Of a stretch of DNA of 32,000 nt, positions 3,001-19,607 are shown one piece after another (position 1 is the stretch's first letter; each line of letters begins with the position of its first letter). Below the pieces are notes generated by a model, which saw only the letters and a program-made list of their open reading frames with translations, was not told the DNA's origin and ran no database searches. The translations under genes were made by a program, and so were the position numbers. This DNA is from an uncultured Ignavibacteriota bacterium (GTDB lineage Bacteria; Bacteroidota; Ignavibacteria; UBA10030; UBA8401), in the NCBI GenBank assembly GCA_903861125.1, contig CAIOTF010000013.1, forward strand, positions 92,407 to 124,406, written 5' to 3'.

Positions 3001-4496
3001 GCTTCAACAGGCTTATTATTGTCAGCACCGATACCCTGTCCGATCATCCGCCGGTTGATGGCACAAACTACACGGCGAACCCGGTATTCATGGCCGGTTC
3101 AATTCTCGGTCCGAACAGTTCTGTTGTGTACGGTGCGAACGGCACTTCGTGTGTTCTTACGGGATTGTTGCCGGATACCAAACATATTGTGACAGTGTAC
3201 GAATATAACGGGGAAGCAGGAACCGAAAACTATTTGACAGTAACGAAAACGCAGAAAGAATTCATAACGATGGTTGAAGCGCCGGTGTCACTTTCACCTG
3301 TGGACAAGGCAATCGATCAATCGTCAACACCGACTTTCGTCTGGAAGAAGTCACGCAATGCGGAAAAATATCTTCTTCAGGTGGCTTTGAACAAGGAATA
3401 TACCGGCACAGTTATTTCTGATACGGTCATCACCGATACAACATTCCACATGCCGATCACGCAGGCACTGAAATACGATACGCTGTATTATTGGAGAGTG
3501 GCGGGAATCAATTCCCGTGGCAGAGGTGATTTTTCTTCGGCATGTTCGTTTAGCACAGCTTCGCCGCCAAAGCTTCTTGTTGGTACAAGCCGTTTAAATT
3601 TTGGTCCGAAACAGATACATAACAAATATCAGATAAGTGTTGTAGTGCGGAACAATTCAATTACACCGCTAACGTTGGACTCTGTTCATTGTGCAACTGC
3701 TGGTTTTTCGGCGAGTATCTCTGTTCCGATGCTCACCCGCGTTGATTCATCGCTTGTGACGATTTCGTTCAGTCCGGATACTATCGGCATGTATGTAGAC
3801 ACGGTCATCGTCTATAACAATTCCGTTGACCGGTTGCTGCGTATTCCTGTTGCAGGAACTGCCCCGGCGGCATTGTTCACATCAAACAATGAATTTGATT
3901 TCAAAGAGGCTCAAGTCCGGCAGTTAAGCGAAAAAGTATTTTATATAACAAATTCATCCCCCAATGTGCTGAGGATCGATTCGATGATGAATCGGCTGCA
4001 TCAATTCGTGGTTGCGGTGGATTCTTTTCCCATTGTCATTGCCCGGGGTGATACATTCCACCTGAAGCTTCGGTGCACACCGGATTCGCTGAAAGAATTG
4101 GTTGATACACTGTATGCCTATACGAACGGAAATCCGGGAATATCCAAAGTGGTTATGAAAGCGCATGCTACGAATGTTTCGAAGGAAGATGAGAAGACTC
4201 CTGAAGTATTCACGCTGCAGCAGAATTTTCCGAATCCGTTCAATCCTAGCACAACCATAAAATTTGGTCTCACGCAGGATGCTGTTGTCTCACTGAAGAT
4301 GTATGATATTCTCGGCAGACAGGTGGGCATGCTGTTGAACAACGATCTGTTGACTCCCGGCTCGTACCGTTATGTGTGGGATGCCGGCCATTTGCCAAGC
4401 GGCGTTTATTTTTATCAGATTATTGCGGCAACGGTATCCGGAAATGTAAAAACCAACATCTTTAATGAAGTGCGAAAATTGCTTCTTGTTAAATAG
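1..4496 (+). CDS. Giant modular secreted/cell-surface protein, 5'-truncated by the window edge. It is an array of FN3-like and Ig-like modules ending in a T9SS (Por_Secre_tail) sorting domain.
   Basis: Frame 3 is open from nt 3. SAGNNVTVTGLKVGTTYYFAVYEFNG..ENYL precedes the GTG listed at 177 and repeats the module motif, so the true start lies upstream of the window. The protein contains repeated ~105-aa modules plus two PapD/ASPM-like beta-sandwich modules (LNFGPKQIHNKYQISVVVRNNS.., FDFKEAQVRQLSEKVFYITNSS..). The C-terminus is FPNPFNPSTTIKF...SGVYFYQI...LLLVK. Confidence 0.85.
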   Translation, partial: SAGNNVTVTGLKVGTTYYFAVYEFNGPADGVENYLTTSPLTGGSSTLTATPVTPASNIVFSNVTSSSMTIGWSNGDGTKRVVLVKSGNSVDGEPIDGITYTASTTFGSGTEIGTGNYTIYNSSSNSVTVNGLLPNTVYSVAVYEYKGTSGNENYLLDNPGTGSKTTLASLPGTQSSALVFTTVGPKTLTMNWTKGTGASRLVVMKAGNAVDTDPVDATSYSANTLFGSGTQIGSGNYVVYNGTGNSVSVSNLLINTTYHVAVYEYNGSGEAINYLTPSTVAENTTTATPTVTLSKTSLTNFGSVIVGTNSSEQSYTVSGANLLGNITVTPPTGFQISTTSGSGFDSAAITLIPAAGTVPATTIYARFSPSVSGSTSKTITHSSDSSVTKTVSVIGTGEGASIYITGSYMDFGKIVVNEVSAEQSYKVSASNVIGNVVITPPSGFQISRKQGGIFVPTNPITLTPSGNAVAQTDIYVRFAPGSAGNFLDSIVHSSTGTSNVSLSVTGTGIIKPTSGDSALQFSSVGPKTITLSWKKGNGINRIVVVKEKVTVDALPEDNTTYTANPIFGQSSEIGLKNYVVYNGTGTYVTVSGLQPNTMYYFSIYPYNGTPGSEKYLTDNVGDSSQSTSEPTIVITGALASFGNVHAGEISAVQNYSVSGTNLVNGISIVPPEGFQVSLASSGPFIGSNSSLALSPNNQVIDPTTIYVRCTPLTGGEKRDSISHVSTGSTTRYAPVSAYSIVEPTIPSSAIIFSSVKPTSMTITWKKGNGTKHLVFLGTDSISNPLPEDRMHYPSSFQYGEGASLTSNIFAVQSDSSNTVTVTHLTPNKKYYCAVFEYNGDSTSADYLTSSYASASQRTQLPVILVEGTLGLFDKIERNTTSGEKNYTVSGSALMNNIIITPPDGFQISLTSGLDFRSLNPITLINTDGIVSATAIYVRFAPTVVRVYSDSIMHSSAGATTIFSQVHGSCIASEPTKQASSIVVSSIGSATAAVVCTEGNGFNRLIIVSTDTLSDHPPVDGTNYTANPVFMAGSILGPNSSVVYGANGTSCVLTGLLPDTKHIVTVYEYNGEAGTENYLTVTKTQKEFITMVEAPVSLSPVDKAIDQSSTPTFVWKKSRNAEKYLLQVALNKEYTGTVISDTVITDTTFHMPITQALKYDTLYYWRVAGINSRGRGDFSSACSFSTASPPKLLVGTSRLNFGPKQIHNKYQISVVVRNNSITPLTLDSVHCATAGFSASISVPMLTRVDSSLVTISFSPDTIGMYVDTVIVYNNSVDRLLRIPVAGTAPAALFTSNNEFDFKEAQVRQLSEKVFYITNSSPNVLRIDSMMNRLHQFVVAVDSFPIVIARGDTFHLKLRCTPDSLKELVDTLYAYTNGNPGISKVVMKAHATNVSKEDEKTPEVFTLQQNFPNPFNPSTTIKFGLTQDAVVSLKMYDILGRQVGMLLNNDLLTPGSYRYVWDAGHLPSGVYFYQIIAATVSGNVKTNIFNEVRKLLLVK
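160..3239 (+). repeat. Intragenic protein-level module array in the order A-A-B-B-A-B-A-B-A. The copies are diverged and are not identical DNA repeats.
   Basis: A modules are FN3-like, with the signature W.KG.G..R.V..K........P.DG..Y.A...FG.G..IG..NY.VYNG.GNSV.V.GL.PNT.Y..AVYEYNG....NYL. They lie at approx nt 160-476, 522-827, 1539-1850, 2232-2546 and 2922-3239, and one more is partly visible at nt 3-150. B modules are Ig-like, with the signature FG.V.VG..S..Q.Y.VSG.NL.GNI.ITPP.GFQIS......IYVRF.P. They lie at approx nt 867-1190, 1203-1526, 1890-2216 and 2580-2909. A distinct module (TPTFVWKK...YLLQVA...YYWRVAG) lies at ~3273-3557. Confidence 0.7.
4206..4493 (+). other. T9SS C-terminal sorting domain (CTD) of the giant protein
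   Basis: FTLQQNFPNPFNPSTTIKFGLTQDAVVSLKMYDILGRQVGMLLNNDLLTPGSYRYVWDAGHLPSGVYFYQIIAAT...KLLLVK matches the remembered Por_Secre_tail (TIGR04183) pattern QNYPNPFNP.T.I.Y.L.....V.L.IYD..GR.V..L......G.....WD......SGVYFY.L. Confidence 0.85.
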
Positions 4497-4527
4497 CGCA
4501 TGCTGAGTCAATAAAAAAATAGATTCA

Positions 4528-5679
4528 ATGTATACAATTACTCTTGCGGGAAAACACTGTATGATAAAACCAACGAACCATTATTTCCGAATTCTGCCGA
4601 TCGTTTGGCTGCTGATGTTCTGTATTGCGTATCCTCTGTCAAAAAAGGAGAAGGCTGCAGCTGCACCGGTAGAACCAAAAAAACCAATGTATGAGCAAAC
4701 GTTCGCCATGTCGCTATTTCCGATGCTGCCGGTCGCCGTGGATTCCATTCTGCCGATAATCAGCTCCTCGTCAGTCGAGGTGAGTCCGGGTATTGCGAAC
4801 CTGTTGTTCTATAAGACAAATGTCGAAGTGATCCATCAGGTTGCTTTGAATCAATCAGAGAAAAAGTTCCTTGCCACGTACTTTGAAAACAGGGTTAGTA
4901 TGGCGTTATCCCGCGATCGCCGTTTTGGGATACTGAACGGACATGATTTACGCGTTCTGAAGATCAATGCAACGGACAGTACGTTCAAGATCCGAAACAC
5001 GCAGATGGAATCCGATATTCAACAATATGCAGCCGATCACCGTATCGACGGGATATTAACGGTAGATGTCCTCATCTCTGATACAAGGGTATTTTGTTAT
5101 TTAACGATCACCGATTTAAATTTTTTGAAGATCTGGACAAAGGAATTTTCGGCAAACTATGTCGACGTCCAGCCTGATTTAGAAGCAGAATTGCAAAAGA
5201 TGATGTCGTTGAAGAAAATTACGGGTTATACCGTTGAAAACATTACACTTGCGCTGCAAAGTTCCGGAGCGTATAACGGCACGAATAAACATCCGGATGG
5301 ATCAATGAACTTTCTTACGCTCGGGTACCGCTTCAACGTCTATTCAACCATTATCAATCGAATGAATTTTTTCATCGATTCGAGGGTTTTTTATGGTCTT
5401 AGGCTTGCGAACTTCAGTTATGCGTTCCAACCCGGCCTCTCGTTCGAATTATTGAAGAATGAAGAGGTGGGACCCCGGCTGCTCACTCTGGACCTGTCAT
5501 ACGGATATCACATTATTCCAAAGGAATTTTTATCGTCCTATATGGTAGGTCTTAGTCTCAATATGAGCCGTGACATCGGACTGACAGGGTACTATGGAAA
5601 GTTCAAGAACCAAAGCACAAAAGCAGCGTACCATGTGGCGGGAAACGCCTTTGGCATACAGATGAATTTTGTGTTGTAA
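4528..5679 (+). CDS. Hypothetical envelope protein with an N-terminal signal/anchor, a periplasmic domain and a predicted C-terminal outer-membrane beta-barrel
   Basis: This 383-aa ORF starts 31 nt after the adhesin stop. It has a hydrophobic N-terminus (ILPIVWLLMFCIAYPL), and ATG 4561 is an alternative start. The C-terminal ~150 aa show amphipathic beta-strand periodicity (FLTLGYRFNVY, FFIDSRVFYGL, YAFQPGLSFEL, LLTLDLSYGYHI, YMVGLSLNM, IGLTGYYGKF, AFGIQMNFVL). I recognise no named family. Confidence 0.6.
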   Translation: MYTITLAGKHCMIKPTNHYFRILPIVWLLMFCIAYPLSKKEKAAAAPVEPKKPMYEQTFAMSLFPMLPVAVDSILPIISSSSVEVSPGIANLLFYKTNVEVIHQVALNQSEKKFLATYFENRVSMALSRDRRFGILNGHDLRVLKINATDSTFKIRNTQMESDIQQYAADHRIDGILTVDVLISDTRVFCYLTITDLNFLKIWTKEFSANYVDVQPDLEAELQKMMSLKKITGYTVENITLALQSSGAYNGTNKHPDGSMNFLTLGYRFNVYSTIINRMNFFIDSRVFYGLRLANFSYAFQPGLSFELLKNEEVGPRLLTLDLSYGYHIIPKEFLSSYMVGLSLNMSRDIGLTGYYGKFKNQSTKAAYHVAGNAFGIQMNFVL

Positions 5680-5731
5680 ACGGAAACGTTATTGATACTA
5701 TAACCGAACATTTAATACGATTGCATCACTT

Positions 5732-6484
5732 ATGAAAAACATATTACAGACAATATTTCTTGTGCTACTATTTATGTCGATCGCTGCTTGTCAGGTTGAG
5801 ATCGAGGCAGAGCCGACACCCGGCAGCGAGGATAGCAATATTCCAAATCCTGCCATCGTCACAGACGGCAGCGTCGATGGCACAACTTCAAATCCTGTCA
5901 CTGTTGTTGATTCTGTGTCACAAAATAAGACTGAGGCAACGATAGCACAGGCCGCGGAAATAGACGTTTCACTTGCGACAATAAAAATAAGTTCGCCTCT
6001 CATTAACGTTCAATTGCTGATGAATCTGCTGAATGAAAAGACGGAGTTCGTGATCGAATATTCGGGAGCAGCCCCCCGGAAGATCACAAAACCAACCGAT
6101 CTTCCGGATAAAAAAGTTCCGACGGAAAAAGAAATATCGACACTTGTCAACGATGCAGTGGCAAAGAACGATTCGGCAAAAAAAGCGAAACAGGATTCCC
6201 TTGGCCGTAATTCCTATTCAAAAGAGGATGCTGATTATAACAAAGCAATGGCAAAATTGAACAGCGCTCAACGCCTGTTCTCGCGAAAGAGGTATGCCGA
6301 TGCACTCCGCGAGATCGATGGGGCAATAACGGCCGCGCCGAATATTGCACTTTCCCATTCAGTGAAAGGTTCAATTCATTATATGCTTAAGCAGAACCTT
6401 GAGGCAAAATCCAGCTGGGAGAGAGCCTTGGAATTGGATCCAGCACAGGACAATGTAAGGGCAATTTTATTACGAATGTATTAA
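5732..6484 (+). CDS. TPR-repeat lipoprotein
   Basis: It has a signal peptide with a lipobox (LFMSIAA-C). A low-complexity Thr/Ser/Pro/Lys-rich linker follows. The C-terminus has TPR-like helices (YNKAMAKLNSAQRLFSRKRYADALREIDGAI...KGSIHYMLKQNLEAKSSWERALELDPAQDNV). Confidence 0.7.
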   Translation: MKNILQTIFLVLLFMSIAACQVEIEAEPTPGSEDSNIPNPAIVTDGSVDGTTSNPVTVVDSVSQNKTEATIAQAAEIDVSLATIKISSPLINVQLLMNLLNEKTEFVIEYSGAAPRKITKPTDLPDKKVPTEKEISTLVNDAVAKNDSAKKAKQDSLGRNSYSKEDADYNKAMAKLNSAQRLFSRKRYADALREIDGAITAAPNIALSHSVKGSIHYMLKQNLEAKSSWERALELDPAQDNVRAILLRMY

Positions 6485-8049: not shown

Positions 8050-9807
8050 ATGAAAAAATCTCTCTGCTTTCTCTGTGCTGTTCTGGCCGTGCTTTTCCAA
8101 ACAGCGTTTTCTTCCACGGATGTTGAAAAAAAGAAACTCACCATTGAATCGGAATGTGAATGGAGGGTGTCCAACGAGATCCGTAAGTATTATCCATCCA
8201 TGAAATACCTTATTTCAGCCGACGCAACAGTGTTGGAAGAATATCCGGCTGAAGATACGGAAAAACCGACGCGCGACCTGATGCTTCCCGGCGTGAAAGG
8301 GTTCGAGACGAACGTCGAAAAAGAAAATGTCCGAATTTCGGTTGAGAAGATCGAGGTTCAGCTTTTAGCGGACAAATATTTCACTAAAAGTGATCCGGAA
8401 CTGCTTCGCCTGCTCGAAAATATCGTTTATTATTCGGGGAAATTGAGCCGTTCACGGGGAGATAAGGTGACCATCACGGAAATGTCATTCCCATCCTCAA
8501 CGCCGGTCCCACCCGTTAATGTCGATTCTGTTACGCAGGCGCATAAAGAATTAACCAGGAGCAAACTACCGGCAGTAGATACCACTAACGAAAATAACTC
8601 TGGTATGGGTGCAGATCTCTCGCTTATGAACATAAAATATATTGGGGCACTTTTTCTGGTCGGAGGAATCGCTATCGGGGTGCTGCTGCTTGTCCGTAGG
8701 AGTAAATTGGACGAGGTTCGGTATCAACAAAAAGTTACGGAACTGGATAATGAACGGCAGCAGAACGAGATTAAAAATGCCGAACCGAATGTGATGCTGA
8801 TGCTTCCCGAGAACATTCAGCGCGCAAATCAAAAAGCGGAATTAGAAAAGAAAAAATCCGAGATTATTACAACCGCCGTCGGAAGACCCGACGTCATTAT
8901 TGAGGTCATTCGTGAGATGCTTCGCGATCCTCAAAAGCAGGCGCAGGCGCAGACCGTCCTTTCGAGCCTTGGCCAGAGCATTATTGCCATTGTCCGCGAG
9001 CATGTAACCGAAACTGAAAATCATCAGTTGAGCAAACTTATTGCTGATGCGCCGCAGGTAGAAAACGAGATGGTCAATACCGCACTAGCCTCATTTCAGA
9101 ATGCGATCGTAATGCAAAAATTTACAATGGCAAATAATGAGAAAAGGAATCCATTTGCATTCCTTGAAAAACTGTCTGAGCCGCAGCTCTATCTGCTGAT
9201 GAAGGACGAACCTGCCGGAATCGTTGCAATGATTCTATCTCAAGTCAATCCGGGTATTGCCGGAAGTTTGCTGCGCAACCTTCCATCAATGCAGCAGGGT
9301 GAGGTTTCAATGGAATTGGTCAAACTGCAGCGGTTGACGAGCGATGCATACCTTTCCGTTGCACGCGACCTGGCTACTAAGGCCTCCAAAATACCGGCGA
9401 TCAACAATGTCCAGGTACAGGGTCCCGAATTGCTGATGGATATCTTCGACAACATGGACGAGTCGGACGAGCACTCGATCTTTGAATATATTAAAGTGAT
9501 GAATGTTGATCTGTACCGCGAGATCTCTTCGCAGCGCGTTGCCTTTACGTCCATCGATTCGTTTGACGATAAGATCATCCGGCAAATTATGAAGGATGTT
9601 CCCGGCGAAGAAATGGCTTTAGCCCTTAAGAATGCTCCGGAAAAAATTATAGAAAAATTCCTTTCTGTACTGCCGTCAAAAGCAAAGACGATATTGAACG
9701 AGCACATTGCGAATCTCGATTCCGTTTCGCTGGAAGAAGAACAAAAAGTGCGCAGAAAAATTACAAGGTTGGTACGAAATTATCTGCGGGTTGCAAAGAA
9801 AGCATAA
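8050..9807 (+). CDS. Bitopic membrane protein: signal peptide or TM1, a ~170-aa periplasmic domain, a TM helix, a coiled-coil linker, and a full-length FliG-like region (N, M and C domains)
   Basis: The N-terminus is MKKSLCFLCAVLAVLFQTAFSS. The TM helix is KYIGALFLVGGIAIGVLLLV (nt 8635-8694). The FliG_N-like part is QTVLSSLGQSIIAIVREH...VENEMVNTALASF. The FliG_M-like part is FAFLEKLSEPQLYLLMKDEPAGIVAMILSQVNPGIAGSLLRNLPSMQQGEVSMEL (compare EHPQ.IALILS.L.P..AA.VL..LP..LQ.EV). The FliG_C-like part is DDKIIRQIMKDVPGEEMALALKNAPEKIIEKFLSVLPSKAKTILNEHIANLDSVSLEEEQKVRRKI (compare LDDRSIQ.LL.EV....L.LALKGA...L.EKFL.NMS.RAA..L.DD....GPVRL..VE..Q..I). Confidence 0.75.
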   Translation: MKKSLCFLCAVLAVLFQTAFSSTDVEKKKLTIESECEWRVSNEIRKYYPSMKYLISADATVLEEYPAEDTEKPTRDLMLPGVKGFETNVEKENVRISVEKIEVQLLADKYFTKSDPELLRLLENIVYYSGKLSRSRGDKVTITEMSFPSSTPVPPVNVDSVTQAHKELTRSKLPAVDTTNENNSGMGADLSLMNIKYIGALFLVGGIAIGVLLLVRRSKLDEVRYQQKVTELDNERQQNEIKNAEPNVMLMLPENIQRANQKAELEKKKSEIITTAVGRPDVIIEVIREMLRDPQKQAQAQTVLSSLGQSIIAIVREHVTETENHQLSKLIADAPQVENEMVNTALASFQNAIVMQKFTMANNEKRNPFAFLEKLSEPQLYLLMKDEPAGIVAMILSQVNPGIAGSLLRNLPSMQQGEVSMELVKLQRLTSDAYLSVARDLATKASKIPAINNVQVQGPELLMDIFDNMDESDEHSIFEYIKVMNVDLYREISSQRVAFTSIDSFDDKIIRQIMKDVPGEEMALALKNAPEKIIEKFLSVLPSKAKTILNEHIANLDSVSLEEEQKVRRKITRLVRNYLRVAKKA

Positions 9808-9847
9808 CCGTGAATGCCGTAACACATTCACGCGTGCAACAATAATA

Positions 9848-9895
9848 CTCCGCAGTTTTCCGAACGATCTCATCGGATCTGCGGAGGTGTTTTTA
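9848..9895 (+). terminator. Rho-independent terminator closing the 1-9807 block
   Basis: The outer stem is a perfect 8 bp, CTCCGCAG (9848-9855) with CTGCGGAG (9879-9886). The inner stem is 5 bp, TCCGA (9859-9863) with TCGGA (9873-9877). GTGTTTTT follows. A second hairpin, CGTGAATG/CATTCACG (9809-9832), lies just after the stop codon. Confidence 0.75.
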
Positions 9896-10252
9896 GGAAA
9901 GTGTAGATGATTGCACGAACAGCATAATGCATAACCCTGTCTATCCTGCATTCACCGATGCATTGTTGTCGAGCACCTCATTTCAATAATTATTTTGTAT
10001 TGCCTCCGTATTTGTTTCGGACGATAGATATTCCGAAGTAGAAAACTATTTTTCCCCCCGTTACCATCCTTCATCACTTACATTCAATTGTTTGCCCCCT
10101 CGGGCAGCTCTGTTCTTTCCGCCTGTCGTTCAATGAATTACGTATCTGCGTAGTGTAAATTTTAATTTAAAAAATTGTAAACAATTGTTGACAGAAATAA
10201 TTTCTGGATACCAAAAATCTTTGTTTTTCCGCTATTTTGGCCATATTTGTTC

Positions 10253-10268
10253 TGGCACGATGATTGTG
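10253..10268 (+). promoter_or_regulatory. Sigma-54 (-24/-12) type promoter candidate upstream of the MerR-like gene
   Basis: TGGCACgatgaTTGTg has the -24 GG and the -12 TTG at the canonical spacing (consensus TGGCAC-N5-TTGCW), but the -12 C is replaced by T. It is intergenic, 139 nt upstream of ATG 10407. A sigma-54 activator gene is present in the same block. Confidence 0.5.
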
Positions 10269-10406
10269 ACATTATAATATGATGCTAAGAACGATTCAGC
10301 ATCGACTAAAAAAAACCGATACGTTTTTTCTCATGCTTTCTCTTGATAATGTATCCCGGAAAATTTACCGGTCTGTTTTAACAACTTTCAACACAGGATC
10401 TATACC

Positions 10407-11264
10407 ATGCAAAAAGTGATGTTTACAACAGATGAAGTTGCGAAACTGTTGAACGTGAATAAGTCTACCATAAAGCGCTGGACAAATGAAGGGAAAATAC
10501 ATTGTGAGCGTACTCCGGGTCAGCATCGGAAATTCAGCAAGGAAGATGTATTGGAATTTTCAAAGAAAAACAATTATCAGGTTGAGAAAATACACAAGGA
10601 ATTTTACGTCGATGATGATTCTACGTTGATGAAACAGTTGATTGTGCAAAACGAGGGCAATGCATTTCGTTCAATCATATTTTCATCCTCTCTTAAGAGA
10701 GAGCAGCAGGAACTCATGAGCATTATCAAAAAATTGTATACAGAAAATATTGCCTATAAGGTAATTCTTCGCGATTTCATTCTTCCTGTGATGACGAAAC
10801 TCGACCGGATCGAATCGATCGGCAAAATTGATGAAAAAAGGTGCCTGGTTGCTAAAAACACTATCGGAAATTCAATGGTTGCCTTCACCGACAGTGTTCC
10901 CAGATTAAAACGGCGCAGTTCGGTTGCAGTTCTTTTTTCATTCGATGTCTCGCTCGAAAATGACATAAAAGTAATTGAATCGAAACTTGAGGTCGATGGC
11001 TACCTCGTTATTAATCTCGGCATCCAGTATTCCTGGACAACGGTAAATCAATGGATGGTTAAAAATGATTCCAACATCTTGCTTTGCCTGGTGAAGCATT
11101 CGAAAAACGAAAATCAGCACCACAGTAATATTTCTGCGTTGGAGCGGATCAGCGAAGACCGCAATATGCTGTTTTTATGCGGGACAACAAAAATGTTCAT
11201 TGACATGGATCTGGAATATGTGGGGAAATTATACAAATCGCAAAAAGTGTTAGAAGTAGCGTAA
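10407..11264 (+). CDS. MerR/excisionase-type HTH regulator with a C-terminal B12-binding-like domain (four-helix bundle plus Rossmann-like) that lacks the cobalamin His ligand
   Basis: The HTH is FTTDEVAKLLNVNKSTIKRWTNEGKIHCERTPGQHRKFSKEDVLEF. The C-terminus follows a CarH/LitR-like layout (ILRDFILPVMTKLDRIESIGKIDEKRCLVAKNTIGNSM...VAVLFSFDVSLENDIKVIESKLEVDGYLVINLG...ILLCLV). DVSLEN occupies the position where D/E-x-H-x-x-G is expected. Confidence 0.55.
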   Translation: MQKVMFTTDEVAKLLNVNKSTIKRWTNEGKIHCERTPGQHRKFSKEDVLEFSKKNNYQVEKIHKEFYVDDDSTLMKQLIVQNEGNAFRSIIFSSSLKREQQELMSIIKKLYTENIAYKVILRDFILPVMTKLDRIESIGKIDEKRCLVAKNTIGNSMVAFTDSVPRLKRRSSVAVLFSFDVSLENDIKVIESKLEVDGYLVINLGIQYSWTTVNQWMVKNDSNILLCLVKHSKNENQHHSNISALERISEDRNMLFLCGTTKMFIDMDLEYVGKLYKSQKVLEVA

Positions 11265-11391
11265 TATATGTCTATCTCAGCGTACTACTTCCGTATCAAC
11301 GTTGGTTTACAGAAAGGGCAACAATGGTTGCCAATCGACTCCGGAAAAAAAATAAAGCGTTGATATTAAGCCAAAAAGAGCAAAAATGGAT

Positions 11392-11407
11392 TGGCACAAG
11401 GTTTGAG
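11392..11407 (+). promoter_or_regulatory. Sigma-54 (-24/-12) type promoter candidate upstream of the small ORF
   Basis: TGGCACaaggtTTGAg has the canonical GG-to-TTG spacing. It lies 37 nt upstream of ATG 11444, which leaves room for a short leader carrying AGGAGG. Confidence 0.55.
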
Positions 11408-11443
11408 TATGATATAGTATACTTATAGAAAGGAGGGTGAAAC

Positions 11444-11587
11444 ATGGTTTACATTTTACTGATACTTGCATACTTCGCGATACTATTGTTCTTCTCACGG
11501 TTTTTTGCATTTCTGAAGGGATGCGACGATTCAATGGCTCAGACAAGCGGCAATATAGAATTATCGGATAGTTCAGCTGTGAAATAG
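11444..11587 (+). CDS. Small (47 aa) single-TM membrane peptide, absent from the supplied ORF track because it is shorter than 60 aa
   Basis: A perfect SD, AGGAGG (11431-11436), lies 7 nt before ATG 11444. The translation is MVYILLILAYFAILLFFSRFFAFLKGCDDSMAQTSGNIELSDSSAVK*. The N-terminus is a hydrophobic helix and the tail is polar. A sigma-54-like promoter precedes it. Confidence 0.5.
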   Translation: MVYILLILAYFAILLFFSRFFAFLKGCDDSMAQTSGNIELSDSSAVK

Positions 11588-11639
11588 AATTAGAATGTGA
11601 CGGGTAAGACTATTGGCAGTATAACAGAAAGGTTTGTAC

Positions 11640-12119
11640 ATGAATACTCGATTATGGGATCACACTGAATTTAAGGACAATGCGGTAGTTGTGTGTGAGG
11701 ATGCCGGACTTAACAACTATCTCAATCAATTTTTGAAGTTCATCGATATGTCGTATGAAGAGATGTCGGCTGATAAGTTGGTCGAATCGATCCCCGGATT
11801 ACGTGACAAAAAGATGTCCATGATCATCTTTGAAGGAAAAGAGAACATTAAAACCATCATGAACAAGCGGTATCTTCTCCGGCGGGATCATCCGGATATG
11901 CAGTTCATCATCCTGCTGGATGAACCGGCGGAATCCGAAACCGTGAGCGAGGATAAAAATTTTCAAGATGTTAAATTTTTGCATAAGAAAGATGTTCTTC
12001 AGAAGATCTCATTATTCCTTGGATATGTGTACTCATCCAAAAAATATTCGGGAACACCAAATAGTAAGGCATACGCGAAAAATATTTCGGATCATCATAG
12101 AGTTGATATGTATGTGTAG
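11640..12119 (+). CDS. Receiver-like (pseudo-receiver) domain protein
   Basis: ATG 11640 is the probable start, because the listed start at 11634 is TTG. The sequence shows the alternating beta/alpha pattern of a REC fold (AVVVCEDAG / LNNYLNQFLKFI / MSMIIFEG / MQFIILLDE / VKFLHKKD). Glu (gaa 11832-11834) occupies the position of the phospho-acceptor Asp. The family call is weak. Confidence 0.35.
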   Translation: MNTRLWDHTEFKDNAVVVCEDAGLNNYLNQFLKFIDMSYEEMSADKLVESIPGLRDKKMSMIIFEGKENIKTIMNKRYLLRRDHPDMQFIILLDEPAESETVSEDKNFQDVKFLHKKDVLQKISLFLGYVYSSKKYSGTPNSKAYAKNISDHHRVDMYV

Positions 12120-12233
12120 CGGCAATGGCCCGGCAAGGTTCACGTATGCGCAGCAGAAGTAATTGTACAAAAGAATTGCGATGTTGAGATATATAAATTG
12201 TTTACGCAGTCAAGTAAAAACAAGGCACCAAAC

Positions 12234-13373
12234 ATGAGTAAGGAATACCCAAAAGTATCAGTGAATCCCGAAGGCAGGACTATTAACAATATTCTTATCA
12301 TTGATGATGACGAGTTATGGTTACAAATGCTCGATGTTGAGTTGAAGCATCTCAACTATACCGTGTATTGCAGCACCGGAAAAGAAACAATTGATGACTA
12401 CAAAGGGAAAAAAATCGATTTTATTCTGTGCGACATTCATATGGATGGCAAGAGCGGCTTTGATTTGTTAGAAGAGATCCGTGTTAATAATAGAATGTCG
12501 ATGATCCCGTTCGTATTAATGTCCGGCATGATGGATCCTTTCGTTATCCGTCGAGCAATGTGGCTTGGCGCTGATGATGTGCTGGAAAAACCGTTTTCTA
12601 TTAATGATCTCATCAACGTCTTCAACGCGCAAGCCGAAAGGATTGCAAGGATCCACAAGTATGCCGAAGAGCGTCTTGATACACTTCGGTCAAGCATTCA
12701 AAAAGTATTTCCATCCGAACTGTATAATTCGCTCCACATTATATCCGGAAATTCGTATATCCTTACAGAACTGACGGAGGAGATAGACCAACGTAAGCTG
12801 AAAAGGATCGGCAATTCTATCACTAAGGGAGCAAATCAGCTGCACACCATTTTTGACAATATTTCGCTGTACACTCACCTTCTAACGAACAAGGACGTCT
12901 TTGCAAAACTCTCCAAAGAATCATTCGCCTATGATTCCGGAATGGTGATTGAGAATGTGTGCAGAAATACGGCGAAGAAATATGAACGGGAGCATTGCCT
13001 GAAGATGCAAAACAATTTCAGCACTCAGGTCCGCATTGCACGGGAATACCTTGAAAAGGTTATAACCATTGTGGTGGATAATGCATTCAAGTTCTCACAG
13101 ATTGACAGCATCGTTTACGTTGATGTTAAAGAGGATAGCTCACTGTTAAAAATTACGGTGGTTGATAATGGCGACGGTCTAAACGAAGATCAATTATCTC
13201 AGATAGGTCCATTTATGCAGTTTGACAAAAATACCTACCAGCAGAGGGGTATTGGTCTTGGGATATCACTTGCAAAACTTATTGTTGAACTTCATTCAGG
13301 CATTATATCCTTTACCTCGCAAAAGGGTCAGGGTACTACTGTTTCAATCATACTTCCTATTCTACCAAAATAA
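12234..13373 (+). CDS. REC-first hybrid kinase: receiver domain, degenerate DHp and HATPase_c
   Basis: ATG 12234 is the probable start, because the listed start at 12198 is TTG. The REC domain reads ILIIDDDE...DFILCDIHMDGKSGFDL...LGADDVLEKPFS. The HATPase part has N box VVDNAFKFS, G1 box VDNGDGL and G2 box GIGLGISLAK. The H-box position reads FPSELYNSLHIISG rather than SHELRTPL..I.G. Confidence 0.8.
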   Translation: MSKEYPKVSVNPEGRTINNILIIDDDELWLQMLDVELKHLNYTVYCSTGKETIDDYKGKKIDFILCDIHMDGKSGFDLLEEIRVNNRMSMIPFVLMSGMMDPFVIRRAMWLGADDVLEKPFSINDLINVFNAQAERIARIHKYAEERLDTLRSSIQKVFPSELYNSLHIISGNSYILTELTEEIDQRKLKRIGNSITKGANQLHTIFDNISLYTHLLTNKDVFAKLSKESFAYDSGMVIENVCRNTAKKYEREHCLKMQNNFSTQVRIAREYLEKVITIVVDNAFKFSQIDSIVYVDVKEDSSLLKITVVDNGDGLNEDQLSQIGPFMQFDKNTYQQRGIGLGISLAKLIVELHSGIISFTSQKGQGTTVSIILPILPK

Positions 13374-13639
13374 TCCGTATACACCCATAATTCTTCATAC
13401 GTCACAATTAGGACGGAGAAGTGTGTGGTAACGGATTTTCCACCAAGAGTGTCTTTGGCTTGATGGAACGTCGGTTCATCCATCTCATCCCCAATTTGCC
13501 TTCTCCTGCAGTATCTCGCTCCAACGTACACTATTTTTCTTTTCAACGGAACACCCTGGTTCTGCCTCTTGTAAACATAAAATAATCCGGCACATCCGAA
13601 TAGCTCATGAATAATGTCGGTGATGGAAATTGATGCCAA
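13328..13639 (-). CDS. Possible small GIY-YIG (URI)-like nuclease domain ORF, or a remnant of one
   Basis: GLFYVYKRQNQGVPLKRKIVYVGARYCRRRQ...VLIVTYEELWVYTDY resembles GIY...YIG...R...E (compare UvrC GVYRMYD..G.VIYVGKAKDLRKRL...TEALLLE.NYIK). The start codon is TTG. The 3' end overlaps the convergent kinase gene by 46 nt. An in-frame TAG separates it from ORF 13646-13873. Confidence 0.3.
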   Translation of the reverse strand: MASISITDIIHELFGCAGLFYVYKRQNQGVPLKRKIVYVGARYCRRRQIGDEMDEPTFHQAKDTLGGKSVTTHFSVLIVTYEELWVYTDYFGRIGSMIETVVP

Positions 13640-13952
13640 CTTTTTCTATCCGCTTCGTCGTGTCTTACGTATTTGATCATTTTTTAGACATATTGAATAT
13701 TGTAACGGGCTATGACCACTAAAGTTGACAGAGGAATACAATTCCCGCGACGTAGAAAAAATCAGTAGTAATGCTTCTTTTTCATTCGTATTCGATGTTT
13801 TAATGTCTGTCAGTAATTCACTCCATAGATCTTGATAATGTATAGTATTGTACATCTGTAAATATGTAAACAAAATTCTACAATCGTCAACAGACGTTTA
13901 CGAAAGTAATCAAAAATTTACAGTATTTATGGACATTTTTTTTATTAAAACT

Positions 13953-13968
13953 TGGCGTAATTTTTGAT
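13953..13968 (+). promoter_or_regulatory. Weaker sigma-54-like promoter candidate upstream of the giant kinase
   Basis: TGGCGTaatttTTGAt has GG and TTG at the canonical spacing but deviates at -22/-21 and in the -12 GC. It lies 42 nt upstream of ATG 14010. Confidence 0.3.
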
Positions 13969-14009
13969 ATATTGTTTAACTCGATGAGTAACCTACAATA
14001 AGGATAGAT

Positions 14010-17000
14010 ATGTCAGATTATGTTTTTAGGGCGCGTAAGCCAATTCTACAGTCCGAGTTCACAATTTTTAGCGTATTTGCTAAAAGCAATGAGATCATCT
14101 GTTGGTTCCATAAACAAGGGTTTCAACTTTCTCATTTTGCGGATAATCGCTTAGCGTCTAATCCGGCAATGAAGCAATTGATAGGTGTTATTGTCGAAAA
14201 GGTCTTTCCTGCTTCACTCGGGGCGAAGATAAAAGAGCTGATTGTCGATTCCCATAAAAAGGGAGCGGCCGAAAAGCTTATTGTTGAACTTGAACTTGAT
14301 GGAACGCTTGCAATCTTTGAACTGAGGGCGATCTCTGACCGTACTTCGGATCTCGTGATGCTGATTATTACAAACATTACCGAATCGTATCATTCCCAAA
14401 CGACCATTCAGTTCCAGAAGAATTTGCATGAGCTCATATCGCAGATATCAAAAGCCCTTATTCTTGTAACGGCGGGTGATCTGGACAAGCAGATACATTC
14501 AGCGCTTGCTCAGATAGGTTCTTTGATGCAGGTTGACCGATCGTATGTGTTCCAATTGAAGCAAAATAAAAGCGTTATGGACAACACGCACGAATGGTGT
14601 AATAAAGGGGTCGATCCGCAAATTGAGAACCTTAGGGATATTCCTGCCGAGATATTCCCCTGGTGGATGGAAAAACTGAATAGGTTCGAAAATATTTCGA
14701 TACCGAATGTTTCGGAACTTCCACGTGAGGCAAAAGCAGAACGGGAAATATTGGAAGCACAGAGCATCCAATCGGTTGCCGTGGTTCCGCTTGTCTATTC
14801 TTCCGAATTGACCGGTTTCATCGGCTTTGATGCCGTCAGTCATCCAAGGTCATTCCCAAAAGAAACAATGGATCTTCTGCGTCTGCTGGGTGACTCCATT
14901 GTGAATGCCATGGAAAGAATTAAAAATGACACGCTAGTCGCTACAAACGAGCAATTGTTCCATAATGTTGTGGACAATGTTCCTGCACTTGTGTGGATGA
15001 CAGACAGCGATCAGCATTTTACTTTCTTTAACAAAGGGTGGCTCGATTTTACCGGACGACCGTTCGAACAGGATTGCCGGGAAGGCTGGTTTCAGTATAT
15101 CCATCCAAATGAGAGGGAGGATTTCATTTCTGCGTTCCGGAATGCATTCCGAGACCGCAAATTATTTACGATGCAGTTTAGGTTTTTACGCAACGACGAT
15201 ATGTACCGCTGGATTCTGATCAATGCGCTTCCGAATATGACCCGCACCGGGGAATTTGTCGGTTTTATAGGTTCATGTACCGATATCACCGTGCAGAAGG
15301 AGAATGAATACAAATATCGATTAATGTCCAAACGAATTGATATTTCAAACTCTTTGTCCGAAACCCACGACCATTTTAACACTGCGGCAAATTTATTGCA
15401 GCATTACCTTGAATTGACGCTGAACCTGTTTAGTTTCGACGGCGGCGGTATTTATCTTGTGGATGCTGAACGTGTTAAAGCGGATTTGGTTACATCGCTG
15501 AATTTACCTTCTGATTTTATCAGTCAGGTGGGTTCATTGCCGGTGGATATTGAACCGTACAAAAGTGTATTGATGAAGGGGAAACCGAATTATTTTGAAG
15601 ATGTGCCGGGAAAAAAATATGGTTTTAACTCGCTTGCATCAATTCCCTTCTATGTGGGGAAAAGCATCGGCGGTTGCATTAACATTGCAACGCAGCGAAC
15701 GCATCCGTTTGCGGATGACGATAAGAAAGTATTATTATCAATAGCAGAGGATATCGGGAAAGCGATTTATGCGCAAAAAATTGAAGAAACACTGCGGCAA
15801 AACAAGAAGAATGTTGATACGCTCTTTAATACTATCAACGACTTTTTATTTGTTCTGGATGAAAAAGGGTTTATTCTTGAGGTGAACAATGTTGTTCTGC
15901 GCCGCCTGGGATATTCTTTAGAAGAATTGCGCGCAATGCATGTAATCCAACTGCACGTTCCTGAACGAAGGGACGAAGCACAGCGGATCGTCGGAGAAAT
16001 GCTGGCCGGAACGACCGAATATTGTCCGGTGCCACTGATCGCAAAAGATGGAACGAGGATCGATGTTGAAACAAATATTGTATTGGGAAAGTGGAATAAT
16101 CAAAATGTAATTTTCGGTGTTACGCGCGATATCAGCGAACGGAAACGAACAGAAAAACGGCTGTATCAAACGGAAGAACGCAACCGCGCTCTTCTTGAAT
16201 CTTCGCCGGATGCCATCGCCTTTTTTGATAAGGACGAGGTCATTGCGTTTACCAATCAGGAATGCGTGCTTCTGCTTGGATATTCATCGAGCGAAGAAAT
16301 GCTGCAGATGAAGGCAGCCGATCTTTTCTCCGCCAATGACATCGAAGTATGGAATTCTGTTTTTTCGGAGATATTTGAAAAAAGGCATGTTAAAAACATT
16401 AAGACCGATCTTGTGAAGAAGAATGGTGCTATTTTTTCTTCGGAAATATGCTCATCGGCTATCTATGATGTGAACGGTCAACCCGAAGGCGTTATTGTCA
16501 CCATCCGTGATATTACGGACAGGCTGACCGCAGAAGAGCATTTACGGAAAAGTGAAGAAGAGAATAAAGCTATTGTCGATGCAGTACCGGACCTCATGTT
16601 CCGGATCGACCATTCAGGTATTTTTCTGGATTGCAAAGTGCCGAATTTCAGCGATCTGTATGTTCCCCCGGAAATGTTTTTAGGGAAAAACATCAAAGAA
16701 GTTCTTCCGCCTGATATATCTCAACAAGCCATGCGGGCAATGGAAAATTCATTCCGGTCAAAAGAAATGGAGCAGTTTGAATATTCATTGCCGATCGACG
16801 GGAAAACCCGATATTTTGAAGACAGGATTGTTGCGCTTTCCAATAATGAGGCTCTTTCTATTGTCAGAGACATCACCAATAGGAAAGTAGCAGAAATAAA
16901 CTTGCACCAAAGTGAACAACGATTGAATTATGCGTTTGTAGTGAGCAGCGACGGCATGTGGGACTGGGATTTGAAAGAAAACACAGTGTTTTATTCTCCG

Positions 17001-19607
17001 CGTTGGAAAAAAATGTTTGGATTTGAAATTGATGAAATCGGTTCAAGTCTGGACGAATGGAAAAACCGTGTTCATCCTTCCGAGGTTGACGCTGCGATTG
17101 AGTCTGTTCAAAAGCATCTCAAAGGAGAAACAGAAATATATTATTCCGAACACCGGGTCTTGTGCAAAGATGGTTCGTATAAATGGATTCTGGACAGAGG
17201 TAAGGTTGTTGAATGGGATCAGGAGGGGAAACCGGTTCGTATGATCGGTACGCATACCGACATTACGCAAAGGGTAGAATCTGATATCCAGATAAAAAGA
17301 ATGTCCATTGCCATAGAACAAAGTTCTGCCTCCATTATTATCACCGATCTGAAAGCGAACATTCAATATGCAAATCCGCACTTTTGCCTTATGTCAGGCT
17401 ATGAAATCGACGAAGTGATCGGAAAAAAAATGAGTATGGTAAAATCGGGATTGACTCCGACGGTTACAGTTCAATCGCTCTGGAACACCATTCTCGACGG
17501 GAAAGTGTGGCAGGGTGAATTAATCAACAAAAAGAAGAACGGCGAGTTGTACAATGAACATGTTATTATTTCGCCGATCAAGAACGCTTCCGGAGCGATC
17601 GAGAACTACATTGCTATCCAGCAGGATATCACCGAACGGAAACGAAACGAAGCGGAATTAGAATGGAATAATACACTACTGCAAATGATGGCCAATTCCT
17701 CCCCGTTAGGATTTTTGGTTGTCGATAACCGTGATGACAGCATTCTGTACTTCAATCACCGCTTCTGCGAGATCTGGGGAATCACGGATCTGGAAGATCG
17801 AATGAAGAAAGATGGGATGAAGAATAACGATATCATTCCGTATTGCATCCCAATCCTGACCGATCCCGTTTCATTCGGTGAATCATGCAAACCACTGCAG
17901 GATCCCGACAACAGTATTGTTTTAGAGGATGAAATTCCGTTCAAAAATAGTGTTACGATACGCCGGTATTCAACACAGATACGCGGAAAACAGGGTCAGT
18001 ATTTCGGCCGCTTCTATATCTTTGAGGATATAACAATCCAGAAAAAAGCCGAACAGATGCTCAAAGATAAGGAACAGCAGACAACGGAAAAATTGAACGT
18101 TGCCGAAGGAAGAATTAAAGATATGTCATTCTTCCTCGACCAGGCGAGTGATGCCATTATTGTGACCGATATGGATGACATCATTCTCTATTCAAACAAC
18201 AGCGTTGAGAATATGTACGGCTGGAATAAAGATGAATTGGCAAATAAAAAATTCTCGGAATATTTCTACGACATTGTCTCCGACAAGAAGAGCGAAATTG
18301 TACGGTCGGTTATTGAAGAACAATGGGAGAATGACTATAAGCATCTGACCAAGGACAAAATAAATATTTGGGTCCATTTGCGTGCTACCGTGATCACCGA
18401 TAGTGCAACAGGTATCAAATCGGTCTTGTATGTGATCACCGATGTAACGAAGAGTCGGCAGATGCAGGAACAGGCTTCTCATAGCCAGCGACTGGAAAGT
18501 ATCGGAACGCTGGCGAGCGGTATAGCGCACGACATGAATAACATCCTTGGGCCGATCCTTATTGCTCTTTCGCATTTCGACAGACTGCTCCCCGATGAAA
18601 AATCGAGGGAAATGAACAATATGTTGAAAGCAAATATCCTCCGGGGATCCGGTCTCATTAAACAGATATTGGGATTTTCAAGGATGTCTCATCACGATGT
18701 TATGGTCGTTCAGATTAAACATATCATTCGCGAGTTGGAACGGCTGATCAAGGAGACATTCCCGAAATCCATCATGTTCGAAATGAATGCATCCAAAGAG
18801 CTGTTCCCGATCGTTGCGAATCCGACCCAAATGCATCAGTTGCTGCTGAATCTTTGCGTGAATGCCAGGGATGCGATGCCTGACGGTGGGAAATTGGAGA
18901 TTCGTGCGGAAAACGTGATCATTGATACGATGACCGCTAAAATGAATATTGATGCGAAGGTTGGTCCCTATTGCCGGATCACCGTATCGGATAACGGCGT
19001 AGGTATTTCCCAAAGCATCATCAGTAAGATTTATGATCCATTCTTTACCACAAAAGAGGTCGGTAAAGGTACGGGACTCGGTCTGTTTAATGTTGCTTCA
19101 ATTATGAAGTCTCATAACGGATTCATCCATTTGGAATCTGAGATCGGAAAAGGAACGTCATTCCAGCTGTATCTTCCTGCATCCACAACGGAAAATATCA
19201 GCAGCGTTATTCAAAACAGCGGTGATTTTCCGAGCGGGTGCGGCGAAACGGTCCTGCTTGTGGACGACGAAGAAGTGATTAGAAATATCACGAAAGCAAC
19301 ATTGGAAGACTATCGCTATAATGTTTTGACGGCATCCAACGGCGCGGAAGCACTGGGTGTTTTTTCCATGAACAAGGAAAAGATCAAGATCGTTATACTG
19401 GATGTTATGATGCCGCATTTGGACGGTCCTTCAACGGTGCGGGCAATACGTTCGATGAGTGCAAATCCGGAAATCATAATGATGAGCGGTATCCATGCAA
19501 ACATCAAAGTGATGGGTGATCTGGGGCTTCCAACGGATAATTTTATTGCGAAACCATTTACGATTGACTCGCTGTTGAAAATAATGCAAAAAACTTTACT
19601 CCGATGA
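14010..19607 (+). CDS. Giant cytoplasmic hybrid sensor histidine kinase (about 9 PAS/PAC, 2 GAF, HisKA, HATPase_c and a C-terminal receiver)
   Basis: There are nine PAC-type endings: IITNITESY, SCTDITVQK, VTRDISERK, TIRDITDRL, IVRDITNRK, THTDITQRV, IQQDITERK, FEDITIQKK and ITDVTKSRQ. GAF-like segments are VDRSYVF...IQSVAVVPL...GFIGFD and FDGGGIYLVD...LASIPFYV...GCINIA. The H-box is LASGIAHDMNNIL (His codon 18528-18530). The N box is LLNLCVNARDAM, and the G boxes are DNGVGI and GKGTGLGL. The REC domain is VLLVDDEE...IVILDVMMPHLDG (Asp codon 19401-19403)...FIAKPF. No TM segment is evident. Confidence 0.9.
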   Translation: MSDYVFRARKPILQSEFTIFSVFAKSNEIICWFHKQGFQLSHFADNRLASNPAMKQLIGVIVEKVFPASLGAKIKELIVDSHKKGAAEKLIVELELDGTLAIFELRAISDRTSDLVMLIITNITESYHSQTTIQFQKNLHELISQISKALILVTAGDLDKQIHSALAQIGSLMQVDRSYVFQLKQNKSVMDNTHEWCNKGVDPQIENLRDIPAEIFPWWMEKLNRFENISIPNVSELPREAKAEREILEAQSIQSVAVVPLVYSSELTGFIGFDAVSHPRSFPKETMDLLRLLGDSIVNAMERIKNDTLVATNEQLFHNVVDNVPALVWMTDSDQHFTFFNKGWLDFTGRPFEQDCREGWFQYIHPNEREDFISAFRNAFRDRKLFTMQFRFLRNDDMYRWILINALPNMTRTGEFVGFIGSCTDITVQKENEYKYRLMSKRIDISNSLSETHDHFNTAANLLQHYLELTLNLFSFDGGGIYLVDAERVKADLVTSLNLPSDFISQVGSLPVDIEPYKSVLMKGKPNYFEDVPGKKYGFNSLASIPFYVGKSIGGCINIATQRTHPFADDDKKVLLSIAEDIGKAIYAQKIEETLRQNKKNVDTLFNTINDFLFVLDEKGFILEVNNVVLRRLGYSLEELRAMHVIQLHVPERRDEAQRIVGEMLAGTTEYCPVPLIAKDGTRIDVETNIVLGKWNNQNVIFGVTRDISERKRTEKRLYQTEERNRALLESSPDAIAFFDKDEVIAFTNQECVLLLGYSSSEEMLQMKAADLFSANDIEVWNSVFSEIFEKRHVKNIKTDLVKKNGAIFSSEICSSAIYDVNGQPEGVIVTIRDITDRLTAEEHLRKSEEENKAIVDAVPDLMFRIDHSGIFLDCKVPNFSDLYVPPEMFLGKNIKEVLPPDISQQAMRAMENSFRSKEMEQFEYSLPIDGKTRYFEDRIVALSNNEALSIVRDITNRKVAEINLHQSEQRLNYAFVVSSDGMWDWDLKENTVFYSPRWKKMFGFEIDEIGSSLDEWKNRVHPSEVDAAIESVQKHLKGETEIYYSEHRVLCKDGSYKWILDRGKVVEWDQEGKPVRMIGTHTDITQRVESDIQIKRMSIAIEQSSASIIITDLKANIQYANPHFCLMSGYEIDEVIGKKMSMVKSGLTPTVTVQSLWNTILDGKVWQGELINKKKNGELYNEHVIISPIKNASGAIENYIAIQQDITERKRNEAELEWNNTLLQMMANSSPLGFLVVDNRDDSILYFNHRFCEIWGITDLEDRMKKDGMKNNDIIPYCIPILTDPVSFGESCKPLQDPDNSIVLEDEIPFKNSVTIRRYSTQIRGKQGQYFGRFYIFEDITIQKKAEQMLKDKEQQTTEKLNVAEGRIKDMSFFLDQASDAIIVTDMDDIILYSNNSVENMYGWNKDELANKKFSEYFYDIVSDKKSEIVRSVIEEQWENDYKHLTKDKINIWVHLRATVITDSATGIKSVLYVITDVTKSRQMQEQASHSQRLESIGTLASGIAHDMNNILGPILIALSHFDRLLPDEKSREMNNMLKANILRGSGLIKQILGFSRMSHHDVMVVQIKHIIRELERLIKETFPKSIMFEMNASKELFPIVANPTQMHQLLLNLCVNARDAMPDGGKLEIRAENVIIDTMTAKMNIDAKVGPYCRITVSDNGVGISQSIISKIYDPFFTTKEVGKGTGLGLFNVASIMKSHNGFIHLESEIGKGTSFQLYLPASTTENISSVIQNSGDFPSGCGETVLLVDDEEVIRNITKATLEDYRYNVLTASNGAEALGVFSMNKEKIKIVILDVMMPHLDGPSTVRAIRSMSANPEIIMMSGIHANIKVMGDLGLPTDNFIAKPFTIDSLLKIMQKTLLR

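Follow-up and report, generated by a model that had tools for sequence, protein, structure and literature searches.

A conserved one-helix membrane protein gene with a probable sigma-54 promoter ahead of a phosphorelay block in an uncultured Ignavibacteriota bacterium

The stretch of DNA analyzed here, hereafter the window, comprises 32,000 nucleotides (nt) from an uncultured Ignavibacteriota bacterium (contig CAIOTF010000013.1 of assembly GCA_903861125.1, positions 92,407 to 124,406 of the forward strand), and the public runs that contain this DNA are lake and freshwater metagenomes. Between a MerR-like regulator gene and a block of signaling genes, the window holds a frame of 47 codons that is a genuine, conserved gene under purifying selection, encoding a membrane protein with one helix. 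Comparison among related genomes indicates that this gene is most likely switched on from a sigma-54 promoter, which we call P2. Taken together, we consider it likely that the product is an inner-membrane protein of 47 amino acids (aa), that it belongs to a lineage-restricted family, and that its gene is the first cistron of a sigma-54 transcript with a predicted start near 11418. A sequence-only reading of the window had pointed out the elements of this gene (a -24/-12-like motif, a Shine-Dalgarno sequence, the ATG, the open reading frame (ORF) and its stop), and each of them lies where that reading placed it (Table 1). Sorting domains of the type IX secretion system (T9SS) and a FadL-type porin point to a Gram-negative host of the Fibrobacteres-Chlorobi-Bacteroidetes (FCB) group.

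When 41 related genomes were searched, the peptide had in-frame matches, including syntenic orthologs in the sister species G013 (55 aa) and G001 (47 aa). The window, G013 and G001 have the same gene order, with the MerR-like gene followed by the peptide, a 159-aa protein, a kinase with a receiver domain (REC-kinase) and then a kinase of 1865 aa. Third codon positions account for most of the differences in all three ortholog pairs. Over the first 33 codons, the comparison with G013 gives a nonsynonymous rate (dN) of 0.175 and a synonymous rate (dS) of 1.74, a ratio of 0.10; dS is saturated for G001, and the ratio is quoted against G013, the closer of the sister species. Both checks had been proposed in the sequence-only reading, and both come out for the gene, with the frame conserved in relatives and dN/dS close to 0.1. 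That reading had also regarded the 79-aa ORF on the opposite strand as unsupported, and indeed the same antisense frame is interrupted by one stop in G013 and by five in G001. Its description of the gene as unlisted holds for the ORF track with which it worked, but an identical 47-aa protein (P0004, Atlas) is already present in public protein collections.

The view that the 47 codons are non-functional, either a chance frame or a mere leader ORF of indifferent sequence, is almost certainly wrong. The frame is short, and Pfam and NCBIfam have no family for it. No RNA run is listed with the stretch, and two metatranscriptomes of the study that contains the organism gave no contig on it; one DNA run of the same study did. 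Against this view stand the dN/dS ratio, residues that are invariant over 32 sequences from many genomes and contexts, profile matches down to 1e-18 in a library of 1.84 billion sequences, and the conservation of both the start position and the Shine-Dalgarno sequence, with a Shine-Dalgarno-like core at -18 to -4 in 29 of 30 family members. A pure leader role is excluded by copies that stand apart from flanking genes, either with a promoter motif of their own or convergent to the neighboring operon. No Rfam family matches positions 9800-14100.

The peptide belongs to an unnamed family of proteins of 37-55 aa, in which an N-terminal transmembrane (TM) helix is followed by a juxtamembrane motif and a variable tail. 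In the alignment of 32 sequences, no gap occurs between Met1 and about residue 33; all members share M1, Y10, F23 and D28, 29 of the 32 have C27, and the consensus after the TM helix reads F-G-R-F-L-K-E-C-D-x-S-M. The window peptide carries the Y10, F23, C27 and D28 by which members are recognized, and it matches the family profiles with E-values of 8.6e-23 (A1 model) and 8e-15 (A5 model). Peptides encoded with the kinase block (group A) form a slightly divergent subtype, with R-F-F-A instead of S-F-G-R at positions 19-22. Of 55 genomes from the same GTDB family that were searched with a profile, 34 contain members of the peptide family, with 1-4 copies each; for the class as a whole, a sample of 201 genomes yielded 11 with the family, almost all of which fall into the same order. 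In the library of 1.84 billion sequences, 106 cluster representatives match at E <= 0.001; almost all are 34-90 aa long and matched from residue 1, and the named public members are entered as 'hypothetical protein' from metagenome-assembled genomes of Bacteroidota. The family is, as far as these searches reach, mostly confined to one order of Ignavibacteria-type bacteria. Neither Pfam nor NCBIfam, searched with eight members, has a model for it; their sub-threshold matches (SMIM43, HemY_N, FeoB_associated and, at E 0.05, a Leptospira 'sigma-54-regulated' family) were set aside as noise of the TM type. The top score in the ESM Atlas, 0.75, is below the meaningful level, and a literature search returned no report on this peptide family or on sigma-54 in Ignavibacteria.

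The genome of the window (G000) has three copies, namely the window gene, C44:405-560 and C38:162267-162395. Many family copies lie 40-600 bp from the start of a contig (G000:C44:405, G013:C154:40, G013:C234:298, G012:C21:277, G016:C235:256, G018:C34:576 and G062:C76:407). Assembly breaks near a neighboring repeat, or chance, are possible reasons; the surroundings of two copies were inspected and showed neither repeats nor mobile elements, and no repeat was seen around the C44 copy.

The peptide has one strong hydrophobic segment, with a 19-residue Kyte-Doolittle mean of 2.38, and a TM helix at about residues 2-22. An AlphaFold2 model built on the family alignment consists of a single helix over residues 2-41, with block means of the predicted local distance difference test (pLDDT) of 94 for residues 1-10, 96 for 11-20 and 90 for 21-30, and a weaker tail. 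By the same hydrophobicity measure, no segment of 1.6 or above occurs in the MerR-like protein, the 159-aa protein, the three kinases or the activator, and the peptide is therefore correctly described by the sequence-only reading as the sole membrane product of the block. The positive-inside rule is an established basis for the prediction of topology. Across the family, the four N-terminal residues include 1 K/R and 16 D/E, and residues 18-33 include 73 K/R. Because K/R are concentrated after the TM helix, the short acidic or neutral N-terminus is predicted to lie outside and the C-terminus in the cytoplasm. F20, F23/L24, C27 and M31 share one face of the juxtamembrane helix, and the conserved working part of the family is probably this helix, which would continue out of the membrane into the cytoplasm.

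Upstream of the gene, the -24 element of P2, TGGCAC, has the invariant GG at 11393-11394, which is kept in both G013 and G001, and 10 nt separate this GG from the GA at 11405-11406. The sequence TGGCACAAGGTTTGA(A/G)TAT is invariant over the three orthologous intergenic regions, while its flanks diverge. The window has a single TGGCAC-N5-TTGA, where 0.08 would be expected from shuffled sequence (one or more matches were present in 7 of 100 shuffles). Alone this is only mildly unusual, suggestive but not compelling; with the comparative data it stands well above chance. The comparison took in 30 different members of the family, drawn from other genomes and settings. GGCA[CT]-N5-TTGN is found in the 120 nt before the ATG in 19 of them, always at -76 to -41, and before only 2 of 209 other genes of the same loci; the relatedness of the genomes overstates the independence of these counts, yet flanks and contexts differ. 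Several of the family motifs are canonical TGGCAC/T-N5-TTGC, and the -12 elements in use are TTGC, TTGT or TTGA.

Raw genome-wide motif counts did not discriminate until they were split into coding and intergenic matches, for which a rough mask of long ORFs (90% of bases coding) was used in place of a gene caller. On this mask, TGGCA[CT]-Nx-TTGN has 27 intergenic matches at N5, 3 at N4 and 6 at N6, and the intergenic share of TGGCAC-Nx-TTGA is 6 of 11 at N5, 0 of 11 at N4 and 1 of 9 at N6. Because TGGCAC-N5-TTGA is enriched between genes, before genes and at N5 only, the -12 TTGA looks like an accepted variant in this organism. The genome carries rpoN (Sigma54_DBD, 8.4e-57, in a 486-aa frame) and 14 strong Sigma54_activat genes, one of them in the block, so that both rpoN and an AAA+ activator with a GAFTGA-type loop are present. 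On the invariant block, the contrast between family members and other genes, and the enrichment specific to N5, a predicted sigma-54-like promoter, which the sequence-only reading had suggested, is the best reading of the upstream element. In the same census, sigma-54 motifs were noticed 47-60 nt before three genes that, judged from their N-termini only, are dnaK-like, hsp20-like and, in the case of one large gene, pyruvate phosphate dikinase-like, which suggests that chaperone genes may belong to the sigma-54 regulon in this lineage.

Several points weigh against a sigma-54 transcript headed by a family member. The canonical -12 TTGC(A/T) is missing from P2, which reads TTGA, with A for C. 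The family counts are drawn from related genomes and are not independent events. The C44 and C38 copies and a subgroup of paralogs have no sigma-54 motif, and no partner recurs in the contexts of 20 loci or emerges from complex prediction. The RNA runs and metatranscriptomes gave nothing on the stretch, as described above. Lastly, a 10/12 sigma-70-type match with an extended -10 TG overlaps P2 and is the best such match in 10900-12300. Hence, one may ask if the peptide gene is transcribed by the housekeeping sigma factor from TTGGCA-N16-TG-n-TATAGT, in which case the -24/-12 likeness would be incidental or a regulator site overlapping the -35. The non-canonical TTGA fits such a promoter, as does the need of some paralogs, those without the sigma-54 motif, for another promoter. 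Yet the sigma-70-type match decays in the orthologs, to 9/12 without the TG in G013 and to no match at the orthologous place in G001, and it is the GG-N10-GA block that is invariant and the -10 hexamer that is not conserved in place. Sigma-70-like matches in the region number 4, against 5.0 expected from shuffles, and the same -24/-12 motif precedes 19 of the 30 family members with differing flanks. We regard transcription by the housekeeping sigma factor as unlikely. Because two of the three copies in the genome and the paralog subgroup have no motif, sigma-54 control would be common in the family, but not universal.

It is also conceivable that the 15-nt block is no promoter element, but an operator, bound by the neighboring MerR/HTH_17 protein or by some other repressor. 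In each of the four genomes, the gene immediately upstream codes for a MerR-type regulator, proteins of the MerR type bind inside promoters, and the spacer aaggt is invariant as well, beyond what a -24/-12 promoter strictly needs. However, MerR operators are usually palindromic and the 15-nt block is not; family members in unrelated contexts, with no MerR gene on that side, carry GG-N10-G[CTA] with other spacers; and the intergenic enrichment of the motif across the genome is specific to N5. An operator is thus a very improbable reading of the block, and we return to P2 as a sigma-54 promoter.

P2 is one of three such elements in this part of the window (Table 1). P3 is conserved in G013 and G001, with TGTAAAC/GTTTAC sites upstream. 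The half-sites of the candidate activator-binding site of P2 are of the GTTnACA type and lie 59-88 nt upstream of the -24 GG, in a stretch that is among the better conserved parts of the ortholog alignment (A2). Eight regions of 160 nt that precede P1, P2 or P3 in three species were compared; the related 7-mers TGTTGAC and TGTAAAC are shared by six and five of them, respectively. The block looks like a sigma-54 regulon unit with three promoters, probably autoregulated. The activator encoded in the block has a Walker A motif, a GAFSGA loop at residue 216 and the receiver Asp. Its loop reads GAFSGA instead of GAFTGA, and its score against PF00158 is the lowest of the 14 strong activators of the genome (175 bits versus 189-242).

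The sequence-only reading had placed the peptide at the head of a run of plus-strand genes, and this agrees with the intergenic regions: no terminator-like site is found between the peptide gene and the next gene in the window, G013 or G001, where the gap measures 52, 30 and 39 nt, respectively. To judge from this arrangement, the 159-aa and REC-HATPase genes (11640..13373) are probably co-transcribed from P2. In G001, the interval from the peptide stop to the next gene contains a 10/12 sigma-70-type match, TTGACA-18-TAGACT (L003 1463-1434, minus strand), which may serve the downstream genes as an internal promoter, in this species only. A search of solved structures with the 159-aa protein gave no match below E 0.4.

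Table 1. Features of the peptide gene, its surroundings in the window and related loci elsewhere in the genome (G000)
Feature	Position	Strand	Remarks
MotA/MotB/FliG-type cluster	up to 9807	+	Pfam
P1, TGGCACgatgaTTGT	10253..10267	+	139 nt before the MerR/HTH_17 gene; identical in G013
285-aa MerR/HTH_17 protein	10407-11264	+	Pfam
Candidate activator-binding site	11305..11333	+	GTTTACA 11305-11311 and GTTGCCA 11327-11333
Antisense 79-aa ORF, not a gene	11307..11546	-	Stops in orthologs
Overlapping sigma-70-type match (TTGGCA, 16-nt spacer, TG-n-TATAGT)	11391..11418	+	Rival promoter
P2, sigma-54-type	11392..11406	+	-24 TGGCAC 11392-11397, spacer aaggt, -12 TTGA 11403-11406 (GG-N10-GA)
Predicted 5' leader, about 26 nt, with Shine-Dalgarno sequence	11418..11443	+	Start predicted at the customary distance from the -12, which ends at 11406
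Shine-Dalgarno sequence AGGAGG	11431-11436	+	7-nt gap to ATG 11444
47-aa membrane protein gene	11444..11587	+	ATG 11444, stop TAG 11585-11587
159-aa protein	11640-12119	+	No Pfam match
REC-HATPase protein	12198-13373	+	Pfam
P3, TGGCGTaatttTTGA	13953..13967	+	GG-N10-GA; 42 nt before the 1865-aa hybrid kinase gene
1865-aa GAF/PAS hybrid kinase	14010-19607	+	Pfam
REC-PAS-HATPase protein	19604-22024	+	Pfam
REC-AAA+-HTH_8 sigma-54 activator	22021-23400	+	Pfam Sigma54_activat 7e-51; candidate activator of P1-P3
Context B operon of the same genome	L041 (G000:C38:156000-166853) 1643-6228		
Canonical or near-canonical sigma-54 motifs	G000:C38:85834-85849, G000:C15:38494-38509, G000:C38:157460-157475	-	Genome census

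The sequence-only reading had gone on to suggest, as flagged speculation, that the peptide tethers or modulates the soluble kinases of the block. Some observations are in keeping with a dedicated anchor or modulator of this kind: no other product of the block has a TM segment, the peptide gene is co-oriented and probably co-transcribed with the 159-aa and REC-kinase genes in three species, a paralog directly precedes a receiver-domain gene in one context group (L049), and the group A peptides are a slightly divergent subtype. We fetched 20 loci, which represent at least five settings. Context A is the kinase block, found in three species. In context B, which covers six genomes of three genera and includes the C38 copy, the peptide gene is convergent to the end of a conserved operon that encodes a MerR regulator, a multihaem cytochrome c, cytochrome b561, a split YeeE/YedE-like sulfur transporter and a rhodanese fusion. 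Context C lies inside arrays of ice-binding-like proteins with T9SS sorting domains, context D beside OmpA-family and receiver-domain genes, and context E before LysE and AI-2E transporter genes. Most family members thus reside in contexts free of kinases (the sulfur-transport/cytochrome operon, ice-binding-like secreted proteins, OmpA and LysE neighbors).

A second line of evidence against a tether comes from G007, a genome of the same genus, which keeps all seven block genes and a sigma-54-like promoter, but has no peptide ORF. Identities to the window proteins are 44% for the 159-aa protein, 64% for the REC-kinase, 64% for the 1865-aa kinase, 59% for the REC-PAS protein and 80% for the activator, and the G007 block also holds a FliF-FliG fusion and a MerR-like protein. 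A TTGGCATattgtTTGG motif (TTGGCAT-N5-TTGG) stands directly before its 159-aa gene, and the gap of 199 nt in which the peptide would be expected (L064 = G007:C49:1-18000, 15128-15326, minus strand) holds only a remnant-like frame of 6 codons. Because G007 has a complete block and no peptide ORF, the block should be able to work without the peptide. G007 is also the most divergent of the four genomes, and from this sampling gain and loss of the peptide would look the same. Complex prediction returned a score of 0.00, where the mark is 0.32, for the peptide combined with the REC-kinase and the 159-aa protein, and again 0.00 for the C38 paralog with its YeeE-like and rhodanese neighbors, results that, according to the tool, are no evidence against binding. 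The peptide gene is, in short, not always accompanied by kinase genes, and the proposed tethering is left unsupported; a dedicated role of this kind may be possible for the slightly divergent group A subtype, but we consider it decidedly unlikely.

In one of the context C loci (L046, G014:C41), an element of about 80-120 nt with the core AAGGATTAAC...TTTCGGGCGATTAC...CATCGGTATACT precedes four consecutive genes, including the peptide paralog (1181-1301, 2407-2527, 3549-3669 and 3898-4018). It matches no Rfam family at threshold, and may be a shared promoter or leader.

The account that we favor for the window gene may be put as follows. Sigma-54 RNA polymerase would start a transcript at TGGCAC-N5-TTGA (11392-11406) with the peptide as its first cistron, and the consensus Shine-Dalgarno sequence would serve its translation. 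P2 would be opened by an NtrC-type activator, most likely that of the block itself once phosphorylated by the relay; bound to GTTnACA-type sites some 60-90 nt upstream, which P1 and P3 would have in common with P2, this activator could open all three promoters. Whenever the phosphorelay turns on its own regulon, synthesis of the peptide would follow, along with that of the 159-aa protein and the REC-kinase. Our best guess is that the peptide is an output of the circuit and not a required structural part, and that its cytoplasmic juxtamembrane helix probably binds a larger protein at the cytoplasmic face of the membrane, as a small accessory or modulator. A bolder version, in which the family is an undescribed class of small membrane proteins, often induced through sigma-54, whose Cys-Asp helix senses a redox, sulfur or metal cue and feeds back to soluble signaling proteins, is a long shot. 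If it were true, the phosphorelay of the block, which has no TM segments, would gain an otherwise missing input from the membrane side.

Small membrane proteins are commonly overlooked, and only a handful are understood. The gene described here cleanly exemplifies a conserved family of small proteins that is linked to one particular class of promoter, in the poorly studied Ignavibacteria-type bacteria of lakes. The analysis also yields a first calibrated view of what sigma-54 promoters look like in this lineage, TGGCA[CT]-N5-TTG followed by any base, which should make its many loci under activator control easier to read, the phosphorelay block with its three promoters among them. No general concept would change unless a partner and a signaling role were found.

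Small membrane proteins that partner sensor kinases reportedly include MgrB and SafA, both with PhoQ, in enterobacteria. MgrB has a topology opposite to that predicted for the window peptide. In Pseudomonas, CbrX is encoded directly upstream of the kinase CbrA, whose response regulator, CbrB, is a sigma-54 activator (PMC13022988). CbrX is bound to the kinase in a cryo-electron microscopy structure, but is dispensable for signaling in growth assays (PMC13022988); likewise, one relative of the window's organism, G007, does without the peptide. All three resemble the peptide in size (about 30-65 aa), in their TM helices, and in being encoded with or induced by a two-component system. The differences are equally clear. 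The kinases of MgrB, SafA and CbrX are membrane proteins and the small protein is bound through their TM or periplasmic parts, whereas the kinases of the window have no TM segment; CbrX is a two-helix hairpin translationally coupled to cbrA, whereas the window peptide consists of a single helix and its gene is separated from the next one by 52 nt. Pfam searches matched the peptide family to no family of the MgrB, SafA or CbrX type.

A kinship with CcoS/FixS (PF03597, an assembly factor of cbb3 oxidase of about 50 aa), a lead prompted by a paralog with R-S-G-Q-F...D-D, rested on a similar size, an N-terminal TM helix and a short acidic juxtamembrane motif. It was rejected: eight members gave no match in Pfam at E up to 10 and none in NCBIfam, and the inspected contexts hold no ccoN, ccoG or ccoI. 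With respect to regulation, the sigma-54-dependent small envelope proteins PspB and PspG of the phage-shock regulon of E. coli offer another comparison. There is no sequence similarity to them, no match to a Psp family in Pfam or NCBIfam, and no pspA- or pspF-like gene was seen beside any peptide copy in the contexts inspected. Like the peptide as we picture it, they are small inner-membrane proteins expressed from -24/-12 promoters opened by an AAA+ activator, and are outputs of their circuit and not enzymes. By sequence, the peptide is not a member of MgrB, SafA, CbrX, Psp or CcoS/FixS; in kind, its gene is that of a conserved small membrane protein, probably under sigma-54 control.

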